This document shows, piece by piece, positions 15,520-61,603 of a stretch of 64,000 nucleotides of DNA. The DNA is from a virus (taxonomy: Duplodnaviria > Caudoviricetes). Location: the IMG/VR virus record IMGVR_UViG_3300030098_005649; one strand, written 5' to 3'. Under the pieces are notes generated by a model, which saw nothing but the letters and a program-made list of their open reading frames with translations, did not search any database and was not told where the DNA came from. The position numbers were made by a program, and so were the translations under genes. Each line of letters begins with the position of its first letter. Within the stretch, counting starts at the first letter, position 1.

Positions 15520-16203
15520 ATGGATTCAAATGATAATAGGAATTGGGCGGGTGGTCGATTCCGTGATAACAATGATAAGTTTGACCCGAATAAATTTTAT
15601 ATGATGAGAGGACACACCTTGAGAACCGTGTTGAATTGCATCGAGGAGTTGAAGCGTGGAGTAGATAGAAAGGTTACGGGTAAGGATGATGGCAAGGATG
15701 ATGTGATAAATCGTGATAGAAGTAGGTGGACGGAAAAGGATTATGAGAGTGTGAATTATTTCTTCAATGCCTTGATAGTCGAGATAATAGACTTGATGGA
15801 AAACCCAATCAACTCCTATAGTGAGGATGAATTGCGTTGGATATATTCAAGGAAAAGAAGGGCTCAAAATCTATTCAAGGATGAAATGGATGATGCATTG
15901 AATAAGAAGAAATCCTTAGATGATATACGAGAGAAAATCCTCGGAATATCACCAAAGGAGGGCAATCAAATACTATCGGACTTCGAGAAACTTCAAGAGT
16001 GGTTGAATCAATTGGGACGAGAAATCATCCAAGACAATAAGGCCAAGGAAGAGGCTCGTAAGAATAAAAACAATTCAAAAAATAAAAATACCAAGAAAGA
16101 AAAACTCAAACCCAAACCCATCGAGGAAGATGAGTTTATTGACTTTTTATTGGATATGGGTGTGGTGCCGAGTCGTGATGAGGGCGGTACGGATGATGAA
16201 TAG
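15520..16203 (+). CDS. hypothetical protein
   Basis: Strong SD aaaggag. Confidence 0.7.
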   Translation: MDSNDNRNWAGGRFRDNNDKFDPNKFYMMRGHTLRTVLNCIEELKRGVDRKVTGKDDGKDDVINRDRSRWTEKDYESVNYFFNALIVEIIDLMENPINSYSEDELRWIYSRKRRAQNLFKDEMDDALNKKKSLDDIREKILGISPKEGNQILSDFEKLQEWLNQLGREIIQDNKAKEEARKNKNNSKNKNTKKEKLKPKPIEEDEFIDFLLDMGVVPSRDEGGTDDE

Positions 16204-16723
16204 ATTGAGGAATATTTCTATCGGTATATTTATTGTATATGAACGAGTGGGAAGCCTTGTTTATAATTTTTTGTGTCGTGGTCGTGATAAAGTGTTTTCA
16301 CTATATACGAACACACAAGTAACGACAAGTCCAAAGAATAAACGATTTAGGCCACACGATATTGAGGATTCAATAATGGATGATGAGGAATTGAATGAGA
16401 TACCTGCCAGTTCCTTTCATCACCAAGTCACAACATATGAGGAAGATTTTATGGAAGAAAATTACCAAGAGGAGATTGTGTATAATAAGGACTACAATCA
16501 GGTGATGATAAAGAGTTATGGGAATAAGATTTATATCATATGTAAGGAATCAAAGGAACAACAAGTTATAGAGCGTATGAGTACTCCTACTTGTATATTA
16601 TCAGAGTATAAGGAATGGAGTTCTGAGAGAGGAATGGAAAAGCGTAGTCTATTGGTTTTTCAGGTAATGGATGAGATAGATGAGATGGAAGGGAATACGG
16701 AACTATGGGACTTGAAGAACTAA
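16193..16723 (+). CDS. hypothetical protein
   Basis: Start moved to ATG overlapping upstream gene end. Confidence 0.55.
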   Translation: MMNRLRNISIGIFIVYERVGSLVYNFLCRGRDKVFSLYTNTQVTTSPKNKRFRPHDIEDSIMDDEELNEIPASSFHHQVTTYEEDFMEENYQEEIVYNKDYNQVMIKSYGNKIYIICKESKEQQVIERMSTPTCILSEYKEWSSERGMEKRSLLVFQVMDEIDEMEGNTELWDLKN

Positions 16724-17082: not shown

Positions 17083-17111
17083 ATAATACATCCATCTCGC
17101 CCGAATGTCAA
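17083..17111 (-). promoter_or_regulatory. antisense copy of early promoter family
   Basis: Minus strand aaaatgcTTGACA-17-TATTAT with extended -10 TG. Confidence 0.75.
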
Positions 17112-17175
17112 GCATTTTCTGAGAACTTTTTCACACTTTTTTAAGTAATAAAGTAAAAAAAAATGAAAAAAACGC

Positions 17176-17205
17176 TTGACATATATGGTGTTTTATTCGT
17201 ATATT
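17176..17205 (+). promoter_or_regulatory. sigma70-type early promoter
   Basis: gcTTGACA-18-TATATT with upstream A-tract. Confidence 0.8.
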
Positions 17206-17228
17206 ATACTATAACAAAAGGAGATATA

Positions 17229-17408
17229 ATGAACAACTTAGACAATCAAACCACAAGACCCAAGACAGGCGTGATAAGACAGATGAAGGTTATCAAGGGT
17301 AACCAACTCATATCTTATCTTATGTATCAGTTCGACTACACTCGTAAACAGGCTGAGTTTATGGAATCAAGGATGCCTGGTGGGTTTGAAGTACAGGTTA
17401 TCTATTAA
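17229..17408 (+). CDS. small early hypothetical protein
   Basis: SD aaggag, directly behind promoter. Confidence 0.65.
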   Translation: MNNLDNQTTRPKTGVIRQMKVIKGNQLISYLMYQFDYTRKQAEFMESRMPGGFEVQVIY

Positions 17409-17482: not shown

Positions 17483-17788
17483 ATGAATTTAGTTACCGAA
17501 GATAAAGTAGTCCTCAAGAGTGTGGGCTGTGTATTCGATAGAAAACAAGGTATTACCTATCCTATAATGACGGATGACACGATTGATTGGGATGGTGGTG
17601 TTGATGTGATGGTCACGGATTGTGAGTGGTTTAGAGCCCTTTCTCCGAAAGATTTCACCATAGTAGAAAAGTATTTTACTGACGAGGAATTAGATATACG
17701 GGCTATGATGGATAACAATTACTTGGAAACCTATTGTGAGGAGAATCCTGACTTCGTAGATGGGTTTGATAATTGGGATACTTTCTAA
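17483..17788 (+). CDS. early hypothetical protein
   Basis: SD aagga; behind promoter. Confidence 0.65.
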   Translation: MNLVTEDKVVLKSVGCVFDRKQGITYPIMTDDTIDWDGGVDVMVTDCEWFRALSPKDFTIVEKYFTDEELDIRAMMDNNYLETYCEENPDFVDGFDNWDTF

Positions 17789-17797
17789 AAAAAGTGC

Positions 17798-17826
17798 TTG
17801 ACTTTATCATTTATTCTTCGTATATT
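17798..17826 (+). promoter_or_regulatory. sigma70-type early promoter driving ORF-less transcript
   Basis: aaaagtgcTTGACT-17-TATATT. Confidence 0.8.
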
Positions 17827-17832
17827 AAGATA

Positions 17833-18077
17833 TGATATAAAGATATAAAATAAAGAATTTGTTGGCTCAGTTCACGAAAGAGGAGTAGGGATTGAGTGGT
17901 GTGAGAACCTTAAAATGAAAGTCTACGGACAACTCGGAATACCCTTGAACTCGCGAATAGAGAGGGGAACCAGTCCAACACCTAAAATTTGATTGGTTAG
18001 TTAGGTTAGAAGAGTGTGGTTTTACCTCCTTTACCACACCACAAATAGGGGAGTCGATTTGGCTTCCCTATTTTTTT
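17833..18077 (+). ncRNA. candidate ~245-nt structured non-coding RNA
   Basis: Bounded by promoter and intrinsic terminator; several stems; longest ORF 25 aa. Confidence 0.55.
18043..18077 (+). terminator. intrinsic terminator
   Basis: AAATAGGGGAGTC/GGCTTCCCTATTT stem then T-tract. Confidence 0.85.
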
Positions 18078-18138
18078 GCCCCTCATACTGACATATTGTC
18101 ATACCAACTCCCCATAAAACAAGGCGTACCCTTATCCT

Positions 18139-18168
18139 AATATAACAATAAAAACATATACGGGTCAA
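18139..18168 (-). promoter_or_regulatory. antisense copy of early promoter family, convergent on candidate ncRNA
   Basis: Minus strand aataatgcTTGACC-18-TATATT. Confidence 0.8.
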
Positions 18169-18322
18169 GCATTATTTTCAAAAATCGTAAATTATTTTGT
18201 GGGTCGGGTAGACAATCCAAGCGGTACTTATGACAATATGACATATACACGAGTTTGGTACGATATTTGATATGGGCGGTATACTTACAAAAAAATATTT
18301 ACCGAACTCTCTACTTATTAGT

Positions 18323-18496
18323 ATGAAGGTAAATCACAACTACTACTATCTATTACAACAGGCTCACCACATAGAGGAGATGTATAACCACTATATGGTA
18401 CACAACAACAAGCCATATTGGTACGAAGAGGACTATCAGCACTTCTTTATCGACCTATGGGTGTACGAGGAGTACCTAAACCTACCAAGTGCCTGA
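18323..18496 (+). CDS. Tyr/His/Glu-rich small ORF (uncertain)
   Basis: ATG 18323; no clear SD. Confidence 0.35.
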   Translation: MKVNHNYYYLLQQAHHIEEMYNHYMVHNNKPYWYEEDYQHFFIDLWVYEEYLNLPSA

Positions 18497-18831
18497 GTAT
18501 GACATAATGACCTACCCCCATAGCTTTATCGTGAACTCGTAAAGGTATGACATAATGACACGGCTCGGACTCGTTTTCATATCGAGCACAATTTTTTTAC
18601 CTATAGCTTTATTACTTTTTTCGTATCACTTCGTGATATATTTTTTATCGAATGTAACTTGTGGTATCCATCGCAGATGGTCAATTGTGTTCATCATCAA
18701 ATATCGAAACTTTTGCTCGTTTTGTGTAGTATAATCTTATATCACATAATATTTATTATTGTATCAATCGTGTGTTCTCACGAGACTTCTCGACATTACA
18801 TATTAGGTTTCTTATCATATAAGGAAACGAA

Positions 18832-19479: not shown

Positions 19480-19818
19480 ATGATAAAGGCAATATTGTGT
19501 TTATTACTTGTGGGCTCCTTGACGGCCCGTAATTACGAGTTTGGTGCTCGTAAAAGTCAAGAACCAATACCTGTGAAGGACTTTCGTTTGGAATACCACG
19601 ACATTCCTGATGGAGTAACTAATCTCATAGGTAAGGTTGTAGCAGTGTTTGACATAGACGAACACGGTAATGTATTAGACGCATATGTTCAAGATACCTT
19701 CAACATCCAACTAAATCACATAATCGTAGATAAACTAAAACAAACCAAATACCAACCAGCCATACAAAATGGAAGACCTGTGCGAGTAAGGATGACACTC
19801 CCTATCGTTTTCAAATAA
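19480..19818 (+). CDS. secreted TonB C-terminal domain protein
   Basis: Signal peptide (LTA|R) then GKVVAVFDIDEHGNV..YQPAIQNGRPVRVRMTLPIVF; no Pro-rich linker. Confidence 0.8.
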   Translation: MIKAILCLLLVGSLTARNYEFGARKSQEPIPVKDFRLEYHDIPDGVTNLIGKVVAVFDIDEHGNVLDAYVQDTFNIQLNHIIVDKLKQTKYQPAIQNGRPVRVRMTLPIVFK

Positions 19819-27148: not shown

Positions 27149-27221
27149 GGGGCTGTAGCTCAGTTGGGAGAGCGCTTCACTTGCACTGAAGAGGTCGCAG
27201 GTTCGATTCCTGTCAGCTCCA
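27149..27221 (+). tRNA. trnA: tRNA-Ala(UGC)
   Basis: GGGGCTG/CAGCTCC acceptor with G3:U70, anticodon arm CTTCA-CTTGCAC-TGAAG, GGTTCGATTCC; CCA not encoded. Confidence 0.97.
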
Positions 27222-27226
27222 CATAT

Positions 27227-27297
27227 GTCGTGGTGACCGAAGAGATAGGTGGCGGACTGCAAATCCGTTTATGTGAGTGCGAATCTCACCCACGACT
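27227..27297 (+). tRNA. trnC: tRNA-Cys(GCA)
   Basis: GTCGTGG/CCACGAC acceptor, U73, GCGGA-CTGCAAA-TCCGT; T-loop TGCGAAT non-canonical. Confidence 0.88.
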
Positions 27298-27309
27298 CAA
27301 GGAAAAGTT

Positions 27310-42834: not shown

Positions 42835-43770
42835 TTGGGTAATGAAAAACTATTTCCATACTTAGTAGGACTTTCCGCACTTATGGTTGCTGGTTCAGCA
42901 GCTTTTTATTCAGTATACGGACTTTCAAAATTATTTAGTGGTGCAACTTTTGCCGTAATTGTTATGGCAGGTTCATTGGAATTTGCTAAGTTAGTAACTG
43001 CATCATTCCTATATAGATTTTGGGATAAGATAAATATTGTTATGAGAAACTATATGTTAGTTGGTGTGGTAACATTAGTAATTATAACGAGTGCTGGTAT
43101 CTTTGGATTTCTATCTAATGCATATCAAGGTGCAACAATTGGATTCCAAAAAGAATCTACCAAGTTATTAGCATTAGAGGAACGACTCGATAATTTACAA
43201 GAAGAGAAAAGGTCACTAAAAGATGATTTAGAATTTCAACTTAGTGAACTACCTGATAACTATCGTACTGCAAAAAGAAAACTTCGTGCTGATTATAATC
43301 CACAAATACAAGAAGTAAATCAAGAGGTATTGGAGATAAAAGAACAGATATCAAATTTAGAATTGAAATTGATTGATACAGGTATTGATGTAGGACCTGC
43401 AATTTATTTGGCAAAGATATTCGATACCGATGTAGATACTGTGGTGAAGTATTTTATATTTGTTCTTATCTTTGTGTTTGACCCAATGGCGGTTGTATTA
43501 GTTATCGCATATAATGTAGCGCTTACCAATCGATTATATCAAAATTCGGGGCCCAGAAAAACAGAAAAAGAGAAAACTTGGAGTGTTTATGGTGAGGGAT
43601 TTTTGAGTTCACTAAAAGGTAAAATATTCAAAAAAGACGAACCTGTAACTTACGAAGAAAAATCGAAAAAGTCAAGCAAAAAAATCGAAAAAATAAAAAA
43701 AGATATTATTGAAGAAGAAAAGAAACCACATAAATTTGGGAGAGATGCTCGTAAACCATCACCTAATTAG
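42835..43770 (+). CDS. multi-TM coiled-coil membrane protein
   Basis: Three N-terminal TMs, coiled coil, IFVFDPMAVVL C-terminal TM. Confidence 0.7.
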   Translation: MGNEKLFPYLVGLSALMVAGSAAFYSVYGLSKLFSGATFAVIVMAGSLEFAKLVTASFLYRFWDKINIVMRNYMLVGVVTLVIITSAGIFGFLSNAYQGATIGFQKESTKLLALEERLDNLQEEKRSLKDDLEFQLSELPDNYRTAKRKLRADYNPQIQEVNQEVLEIKEQISNLELKLIDTGIDVGPAIYLAKIFDTDVDTVVKYFIFVLIFVFDPMAVVLVIAYNVALTNRLYQNSGPRKTEKEKTWSVYGEGFLSSLKGKIFKKDEPVTYEEKSKKSSKKIEKIKKDIIEEEKKPHKFGRDARKPSPN

Positions 43771-61138: not shown

Positions 61139-61541
61139 GGGGGTGCTTGGTATCGACTGGTATTGTTTGATATAAAGTGCAACAGAGATTGAGTATGTCT
61201 CGTTACAAAAGACTCACAATCCAAATTGGCGAATTATCGCTAGAAGGGTTGGACATTGATTGGCATTTGGCTGAGTATGATTACTCAGTTGAGTTACCAA
61301 TCGGTAATGACCAACCAACTTACGCATACGCTGCATAAGTTACTGAGTTGTCTAACACTCGGTCATAAAATAAGTTAGACACCAACTCGTGTGATAGAGT
61401 ATAAATTTCATCAGTTAGACCATTCTGAGTAAAATGGGATATGGTGGTTTGTTGATTTCTACCGATTTGAAATCTTACTAAGTTGTGAATGACTTTGTAT
61501 TGAAAATAAACAGGACGCGGGTTCGACTCCCGCCACCTCCA
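61139..61541 (+). ncRNA. ssrA: tmRNA (transfer-messenger RNA)
   Basis: GGGGGTG/CACCTCC-A acceptor with G3:U70; GGTATCGAC 5' motif; GCGGG-TTCGACT-CCCGC T-arm; pk1 at ~61186-61216; tag frame 61228-61338 ending YAYAA*. Confidence 0.96.
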
Positions 61542-61603
61542 CAAAAATTCGATTTTTAGTTTTTTAGATGATATTTATAACTAATAACGAGAGGAACGAA
61601 ACT

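Follow-up and report, generated by a model that had tools for sequence, protein, structure and literature searches.

A probable structured RNA family of marine phages with an invariant Shine-Dalgarno-like loop and, in one lineage, a copy of the 16S rRNA tail

Small RNAs that act by base pairing through an anti-Shine-Dalgarno (anti-SD) or C-rich loop seed are known in several bacterial groups. Examples are the csRNAs of streptococci, RsaE of staphylococci and RoxS of Bacillus, and Yfr1 of cyanobacteria. Another class of relevant molecules is that of orphan structured RNA motifs, which were found in phages and marine metagenomes and include the Breaker-lab collections, GOLLD, ROOL and IMES. Phage T4 produces small stable RNAs, species 1 and 2 (rnaC and rnaD), which are encoded in the tRNA cluster and processed from it. 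Finally, SD and anti-SD sequences are known to sequester each other within mRNAs, both in RNA thermometers and in type I toxin mRNAs such as aapA1 of H. pylori (PMC6733600).

Here, we report on a unit at positions 17833-18077 of a phage sequence of 64 kb, which we call the window (33% G+C; all ORFs of at least 150 aa lie on the plus strand). This unit very probably represents a real family of structured non-coding RNAs. The original prediction described a promoter and a strong terminator on both sides of a region with no credible ORF, a long-range stem closing a multi-hairpin domain, and a hairpin displaying an anti-SD loop that matches the 3′ end of 16S rRNA. All of these components are present. 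Homologues were found in five further lineages, so that the lineage of the window is called A and the others B to F. The elements of the locus are as follows.

17789..17827, plus strand: promoter of a repeated family, with the -35 element TTGACT at 17798-17803, the -10 element TATATT at 17821-17826 and a conserved AAAGTGC upstream
17833..17859, plus strand: AU-rich 5′ leader of the short form; long-form strains have the 5′ domain here
17860..17980, plus strand: RNA core, a multi-helix junction of helices P1-P6 defined by RNAalifold and pair counts
17860-17864/17976-17980, plus strand: P1, the TGTTGG/CCAACA stem that closes the core
17865-17875/17888-17897, plus strand: P2, helix of the core
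17876..17887, plus strand: SD-like apical loop of P2, the 12-nt GAAAGAGGAGUA, identical in all six lineages
17898-17900/17907-17909, plus strand: P3, helix of the core
17901..17920, plus strand: invariant P3 loop GUGAGA, the 3′ strand of P3 (which covaries in lineage C) and the joiner UUAAAAUGAAA
17921-17923/17928-17930, plus strand: P4, helix of the core
17932-17937/17970-17974, plus strand: P5, helix of the core
17942-17946/17962-17966, plus strand: P6, helix of the core
17980..18006, plus strand: HP1, a weak hairpin specific to lineage A
18014..18039, plus strand: HP2, the anti-SD hairpin of lineage A, with the stem GUGUGGU/ACCACAC and the loop UUUACCUCCUUU (18021-18032)
18043..18077, plus strand: intrinsic terminator with a 13-bp stem (18043-18073), a 5-nt loop and U7
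18139..18170, minus strand: convergent promoter of the same family, specific to lineage A, with a polymorphic -10 element (TATATT or TAAATT)

The locus is similar to those of csRNA, RsaE and Yfr1 in that an independent small transcript is predicted, and in that an unpaired, pyrimidine-rich, SD-complementary motif is placed beside an intrinsic terminator. At the level of sequence it is a short ORF-less unit with its own promoter and terminator, and the seed is displayed in single-stranded form. However, conservation of the seed among homologues was not found. In the bacterial families the seed is the most conserved part, whereas here the exact seed appears in one lineage only and what is conserved is a distinct junction of 120 nt whose loop is SD-like and not anti-SD. 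Searches with the csRNA, RsaE, RoxS and Yfr1 families of Rfam gave no match at E-values up to 10. The orphan motifs resemble this RNA in their phage or marine origin, their own transcription signals, a covarying multi-helix fold and modular optional domains. Unlike GOLLD and ROOL, the RNA described here is much smaller, and it possesses an invariant SD-like loop and, in its long forms, a start-stop mini-ORF at the 5′ side. It resembles T4 species 1 and 2 as a non-coding RNA of T4-type phages, which also carry tRNA genes, but has its own promoter and is located ~9 kb from the tRNA pair of the phage. As in aapA1-type elements, SD-like and anti-SD-like sequences reside in one transcript and are able to pair and hide each other. 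Those elements control a downstream ORF, whereas no conserved ORF follows here; moreover, ~140 nt separate the two hairpin loops that hold the motifs, and most lineages lack the anti-SD partner. The conserved fold closed by P1 is aptamer-like, as in riboswitches, but the RNA has no 5′ UTR position with a conserved link to an expression platform.

Orphan structured RNAs in phages as such are already known, and it is the family and its architecture that are new. The comparison with Rfam that had been proposed for this locus yielded no family, either for the unit in the window or for the other lineages. At the gathering threshold, Rfam 15 (4227 models) detected only a tmRNA and two tRNAs elsewhere in the window, and in E-value scans of the window region and of six contigs with the RNA (L016, L045, L061, L065, L071 and L075) no match fell below E = 0.01. 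The sole match at E = 0.01, to a group I intron on the minus strand, depends on the promoter sequence and lacks any exon context, and it was rejected. No description of this RNA was found in the literature.

The source of the window is an abundant marine phage population. In the assembly collection, 101 blocks list the exact protein of a neighbouring gene, and many of these blocks are from Tara Oceans. The T4-type Gp23 capsid protein of a related phage that also has the RNA (E = 5e-76) shows that at least part of the phage group is T4-like. The tRNA pair, tRNA-Ala(TGC) and tRNA-Cys(GCA), is located at 27149-27298 of the window. A one-piece tmRNA with the tag GNDQPTYAYAA is encoded at 61139-61544; one-piece tmRNAs are rare among marine phages according to a paper on marine OM43 and SAR11 myophages (PMC9004378). 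The product of the gene at 19480-19818 is small and secreted and has a TonB C-terminal domain (a weak Pfam match on contigs), which points to a Gram-negative host. Two gene segments upstream of the RNA are hypervariable among near-identical strains, with 22% (17163-17408) and 12% (16130-16723) polymorphic sites against 1-5% nearby, which suggests that alleles in this gene region are replaced by recombination. On the other side, in the ~750 nt that follow the terminator (18078-18831), gene callers predict no gene. This stretch contains the palindrome TGACATATTGTCA (18089-18103), three GTATGACA(T/A)AATGAC boxes (at 18228, 18497 and 18545) and a G+C-rich segment (18409-18588, 45%). In the metatranscriptome X18, contigs of 34x depth cover 18203-18353 and 18416-18566, the upstream gene being at ~4x.

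The RNA region differs from its surroundings in composition and in polymorphism. Its G+C content is 44-47% against the window mean of 33%, which places it in the top 1% of 180-nt windows. Among 18 natural variants, only two of the 186 sites of segment 17855-18040 are variable. This is the lowest polymorphism of the neighbourhood, compared with 16 of 193 sites in the next intergenic stretch and 15 of 306 in the upstream gene. Six natural SNPs are known in the RNA, and all of them are at unpaired positions or preserve a pair: C>U at 17981 in HP1 keeps the pair as U.G, and G>A at 18062 converts a U.G pair of the terminator into U-A. Near-identical marine variants (at least 99% identity) also have the element. 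Relatives found through the upstream gene at 28-61% protein identity (L007-9 and L017-44) lack the RNA and have different genes at its location.

Signals for transcription are found on both sides of the RNA. The promoter, TTGACT-17-TATATT at 17798-17826, matches the consensus at 10 of 12 positions and lies in a longer motif, AAAGTGCTTGAC..N17..GTATATT, of which the window has 13 plus-strand copies. For twelve of these, an ORF of 39 aa or more follows at a distance of no more than 37 nt, and the copy of the RNA gene is the sole exception. Transcription would start near 17833. In all other lineages, too, a same-strand promoter is located directly upstream of the RNA copy. At the other end, the 48-nt stretch that ends in the T-run of the terminator has a folding energy of -17.4 kcal/mol, and the 64 kb contain only one other strong intrinsic terminator on the plus strand. 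It was overlooked by a consensus terminator scanner, which lengthens the stem into the T-run. A minus-strand promoter at 18170 faces this terminator. It is one of three promoter-like sites on the minus strand (18139-18170, 43647-43677 and 17083-17111), none of which has an ORF nearby; the copies at 18170 and 43677 fit the family motif, and that at 17111 is only a near-consensus TTGACA-17-TATTAT. In eight RNA-library runs, the contigs over the unit are of low depth (2-5x) and unstranded. Some of these bridge the promoter (17600-17919) and are contiguous with the upstream gene, and one extends 25 nt beyond the terminator. An abundant discrete RNA was not seen in the eight runs, although such low-depth, unstranded contigs cannot exclude one.

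Homologues of the RNA came to light mainly through protein and profile searches. A blastn search of the phage collection found nothing, and exact-pattern scans of viral contigs with the hairpin and the core returned only one chance match in a coding region. An exhaustive phmmer search with the spurious 51-aa translation of the RNA gave two 'proteins' at 60-66% identity, which proved to be divergent copies of the RNA, and two pattern scans together with a profile search added lineages D, E and F. The five further lineages are all marine and show ~60-80% identity: B (L059-64), C (L065-70), D (L071), E (L075) and F (L135). They sit in related phages that have other small genes of the region in common, in shuffled order. 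Some of the six lineages are recombinants of one another, as in the case of D, which combines an A-like core with a B-like flank. In lineage C (L065:531-1895), the RNA comes directly after a series of genes whose proteins have prepilin-type N-terminal methylation motifs (PF07963), and a peptide deformylase gene is found ~2.8 kb further on. The covariance model of the family, R1, has an effective sequence number of 1.24. It detects exactly one copy per phage record, and its scores on full-length copies, 146-170 bits, all belong to its own build sequences or near-copies of them. Among 55 pattern matches in genome_contigs, which were considered as possible bacterial copies, all fail this model (best E = 0.06).

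Strains and lineages also differ in a 5′ domain of ~170 nt. In lineage A it occurs in the long-form strains L016, L045 and L046 (3 of the 18 DNA contigs) and in one metatranscriptome contig (X27). It occupies L045:2842-3013 and L016:640-815, joins the rest of the RNA at ~17853 and corresponds to 17833-17853 in the window. Lineages B, D and F possess the domain, and C and E lack it. Its helices covary, and the full long-form alignment has 56 pairs, 23 of which are compensatory. At the 5′ end of the long form there is an SD sequence with a mini-ORF made of a start codon, one codon and a stop codon (L045:2860-2870, with equivalents in L061, L071 and L135). The mini-ORF reads ATG AAT TGA in A, B and F and ATG AAC TAA in D, and the surrounding leader differs.

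The fold of the core is supported mainly by comparative analysis. The long-range TGTTGG/CCAACA stem of the original prediction corresponds to P1. Its probability in single-sequence folding is 0.2-0.43, and the 5′ part alone folds with z = -0.48, unlike the 3′ module (17980-18077), for which z = -3.79 (0 of 200 shuffles). P1 is backed by covariation over the six lineages, with a U-A to A-U swap in lineage C. RNAalifold was run on independent MAFFT alignments, called A6 (six sequences) and A9 (seven sequences, including lineage F). In A6, 14 of 31 pairs are compensatory, compared with 6.9 ± 1.8 in shuffles and 3-5 in slid controls, and 95.2% of the cells are paired, compared with 79.3% in shuffles; 0 of 500 shuffles reach either value. 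In A9, 13 of 26 pairs are compensatory and 96.7% of cells are paired against 77.5% in shuffles. The same alignment has 35 compensatory cells against 12.2, and its covariation score is 0.604 against 0.07-0.18 in slid controls. None of the five pair-count measures was reached by any of 500 shuffles. In P2 and P6 most positions change and the pairs are kept, while P1, P3 and P4 show one clean swap each. The P2 loop GAAAGAGGAGUA stays identical while its flanking helix varies at 5 of 10 pairs. The joiner UUAAAAUGAAA is single-stranded and mostly invariant, and contains an AUG at 17915 (GUG in long-form strains). Further strands that are invariant in the six lineages are CAACUC and CAG.CCA. Covariation among homologues, one of the checks proposed at the outset, is seen in the core at 17860-17980 and in the 5′ domain, and the anti-SD loop is not conserved.

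In lineage A, the anti-SD hairpin HP2 (7-bp stem and 12-nt loop UUUACCUCCUUU) is present in both the MFE and the centroid structure, and its loop bases are unpaired in the ensemble with values of 0.56-0.92. As predicted, the loop matches the end of 16S rRNA: ACCTCCTT agrees over 8 nt without mismatch with the 3′ end of the E. coli rrsH 16S, and ACCUCCUU of the same loop matches the 3′ end of E. coli 16S rRNA. The ninth base, T, fits the ...CCUCCUUU tails of 16S rRNA in many other bacteria. ACCTCCTTT occurs once in the window. HP2 and the terminator are missing in four of the five other lineages (B, C, D and F). There is no CCUCC 3′ of the core in B, C and D, and F has only CACCUC at the 3′ strand of P1. 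Lineage E has a hairpin that resembles HP2, with the U-rich loop UUUUACUUCUUAUUU and no CCUCC. A and E have in common a block of 14 out of 16 nt, GUGGUUUUACYUCYUU, in which E has U where A has C, and these C-to-U differences face G of the P2 loop. In the MFE fold of lineage E, the hairpin stem prefers another partner. The 3′ flanks are diverse. In C, the core is followed at once by the promoter of the next gene (28/41 to the family consensus, P = 0); those of B and D are unrelated; and F has a different hairpin. A block in B and D was considered as a conserved 3′ anti-SD element and rejected, as it resembles a weak promoter of the next cassette (19/41, P ~0.1); HP2 of lineage A has no similarity to the promoter (P = 0.74). 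HP2 carries no SNP across the 18 variants, its 26 nt being too short to be informative at this divergence. Judged from the lineages compared, the exact anti-SD loop is a feature of one lineage and appears to be an accessory, not part of the conserved core.

The unit could in principle be a small protein gene, on the plus strand with an ORF of 51 or 25 aa (ATG at 17915) or on the minus strand with an ORF of 56 aa (18037-17867), which we regard as very improbable. Indeed, gene callers predict the 51-aa ORF in long-form strains and the plus frame in several lineages (P0001, P0002, P0006 and P0007), and in A, D, E and F no stop codon interrupts this frame across the core. However, its start codon is not conserved, being TAG in D and not present in the window, and the apparent 'RBS + TTG' of the 51-aa ORF is E4, a covarying hairpin of the 5′ domain. 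Values of pN/pS in the frame are 0.55-1.63, thus around 1, with other frames no different, and variable columns are distributed evenly over the codon positions (17/19/18). What looks like synonymous wobble (GGG/GGT/GGA and ATT/ATC/ATA) falls in the 3′ strand of P2 and covaries with 'non-synonymous' changes in the opposite 5′ strand. No peptide after the AUG at 17915 is conserved among the lineages. The view that the unit holds no credible ORF is therefore upheld. For the minus-strand ORF, which is antisense to the core, all four natural SNPs are synonymous (P = 0.013) and a family promoter is present upstream on that strand. This ORF was nevertheless rejected: it has no RBS or SD and antisense-typical codon usage (-0.30 bits per codon), gene finders never predict it, a library of 5.8 billion predicted proteins does not contain its product, and the promoter has the other orientation in every other lineage. 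The synonymous SNPs were judged a coincidence. A type I toxin-antitoxin system was also considered and rejected, since neither strand has a hydrophobic ORF and the convergent promoter is limited to lineage A. Still harder to credit is that the unit is evolutionary debris, that is, a decayed cassette or a captured fragment such as one of 16S rRNA, transcribed and functionless. The hypervariable region, the presence or absence of the 5′ domain among strains, the foreign-looking G+C content and a few 8-10-mers in common with E. coli 16S would fit this idea, but compensatory evolution in six lineages and the lowest core polymorphism of the neighbourhood are against it. A decayed paralogue of the upstream gene is rejected by the family HMM, which scores ~1 bit. 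A mini-16S origin was rejected as well, since the matches of AGGGGAACC, TGGCTCAG and ACTGAGACAC to E. coli 16S are not colinear and are near chance. The AGGGGAACC match in the 3′-terminal region of E. coli 16S is to what we take to be the h45 loop. The 8-mers in common with rrsH are scattered (positions 20, 975, 713, 1513, 950, 1534 and 850), the k-mer enrichment of the short form has P = 0.14, and the SSU rRNA model has no match to the RNA.

Several further explanations take the unit as a functional RNA and differ in what the loops do. The original prediction proposed a phage small RNA whose anti-SD loop blocks AGGAGG sites of the host in trans or titrates a factor that binds the 16S tail. 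Of this proposal, a non-coding structured RNA gene is retained, while the masking of ribosome-binding sites is unlikely. The loop is an exact, mostly unpaired copy of 8-9 nt of the 16S tail and adjoins a strong terminator, as in many base-pairing small RNAs. The full AGGAGG is rare on the plus strand of the phage (three sites), so that the phage could partly escape. The lack of SNPs in HP2 fits as well, within the uninformative length noted above. However, the exact loop is confined to one lineage, and a general role in masking is unsupported because the anti-SD hairpin and the terminator are not conserved. Moreover, 65 AGGAG sites are present on the coding (plus) strand of the phage itself, which a general mask would also strike; the longest exact reverse-complement match in the window is 12 nt, at chance level, which leaves only generic SD complementarity; and the eight RNA-library runs show no abundant discrete transcript. 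Quite unlikely, too, is a riboswitch-like cis element, in which the core would sense a ligand or factor and the hairpin and terminator would control read-through into downstream sequence. The architecture is the typical one, with a P1-closed junction, invariant loops and joiners and then a terminator. By inspection, another possible partner of the HP2 loop is the 5′ arm of the terminator (CUCCUUUA/UAGGGGAG), and one RNA-library contig crosses the terminator. Against this, the next gene of lineage C has a promoter of its own directly behind the core, the first ~750 nt downstream in the window contain no called gene, the supposed expression platforms are unrelated between lineages and no Rfam riboswitch matches. 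In a ribosome decoy, a rather unlikely reading, the SD-like loop and the AUG joiner would bind the anti-SD tail of 16S on free 30S subunits, gated by HP2 in A and E. The identity of GAAAGAGGAGUA in six lineages despite the changes in its flanking helix, its resemblance to the usual AGGAG ribosome-binding sites of the phage, the conserved AUG/GUG 29 nt downstream of it, the SD and mini-ORF kept in the long forms of A, B, D and F, and the translation-related tmRNA and tRNAs of the phage are all consistent with this. It is, however, purely inferential: the purine-rich loop might just as well make a tertiary contact or bind a protein, the 29-nt spacing between SD and AUG is unlike an initiation site, and no conserved peptide follows. 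The broader form of this idea, which we hold to be rather improbable also, is a new class of ribosome-targeting phage RNA, where the SD-like loop would dock on the 16S tail as a decoy or recruiter, HP2 would be a lid in some lineages, and the optional 5′ domain, which includes the start-stop mini-ORF, would adjust loading.

The explanation that we favour, and consider likely as a whole, is that of a plus-strand non-coding RNA gene belonging to a structured family, which is present once per genome in related marine phages, at least one of them T4-like. Its product would be a stand-alone folded RNA with the SD-like P2 loop as its working surface, for which the 16S 3′ tail, a protein or another RNA may be the partner. 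In lineage A, the anti-SD loop would most plausibly pair with the P2 loop in cis and form a loop-loop 'lid' of 7 bp, a reading of HP2 that is put forward tentatively, as a possibility that the sequences allow. Pairing with AGAGGAG near 17879 had been mentioned from the beginning. The partner is indeed the invariant P2 loop, and the duplex AGAGGAG/CUCCUUU has 7 bp and -9.2 kcal/mol, but its energy is no better than that of shuffled flanks (P = 0.45). Since the P2 loop is invariant, covariation carries no information on this kissing pair. The C/U differences between A and E lie opposite G, and an intramolecular contact, or simply a stabilising 3′ hairpin, is for this reason favoured over a general mask of ribosome-binding sites, which the RNA probably is not. 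HP2 together with the terminator would also give a stable 3′ end.

Few structured non-coding RNAs are known from lytic phages, most of them without an explanation, and the RNA described here comes from a population that is widespread in ocean metagenomes. It is compact, with ~120 nt or up to ~300 nt including the 5′ domain, and its fold is well supported by compensatory evolution. Its most constrained element resembles a ribosome-binding site, and in one lineage the RNA has gained a copy of the 16S tail that could pair with this loop. The SD-like loop and the 16S-tail copy give a testable handle on a phage RNA that may engage the translation machinery or regulate itself. In addition, the presence or absence of the structured 5′ domain among strains provides a natural deletion series for tests of function.
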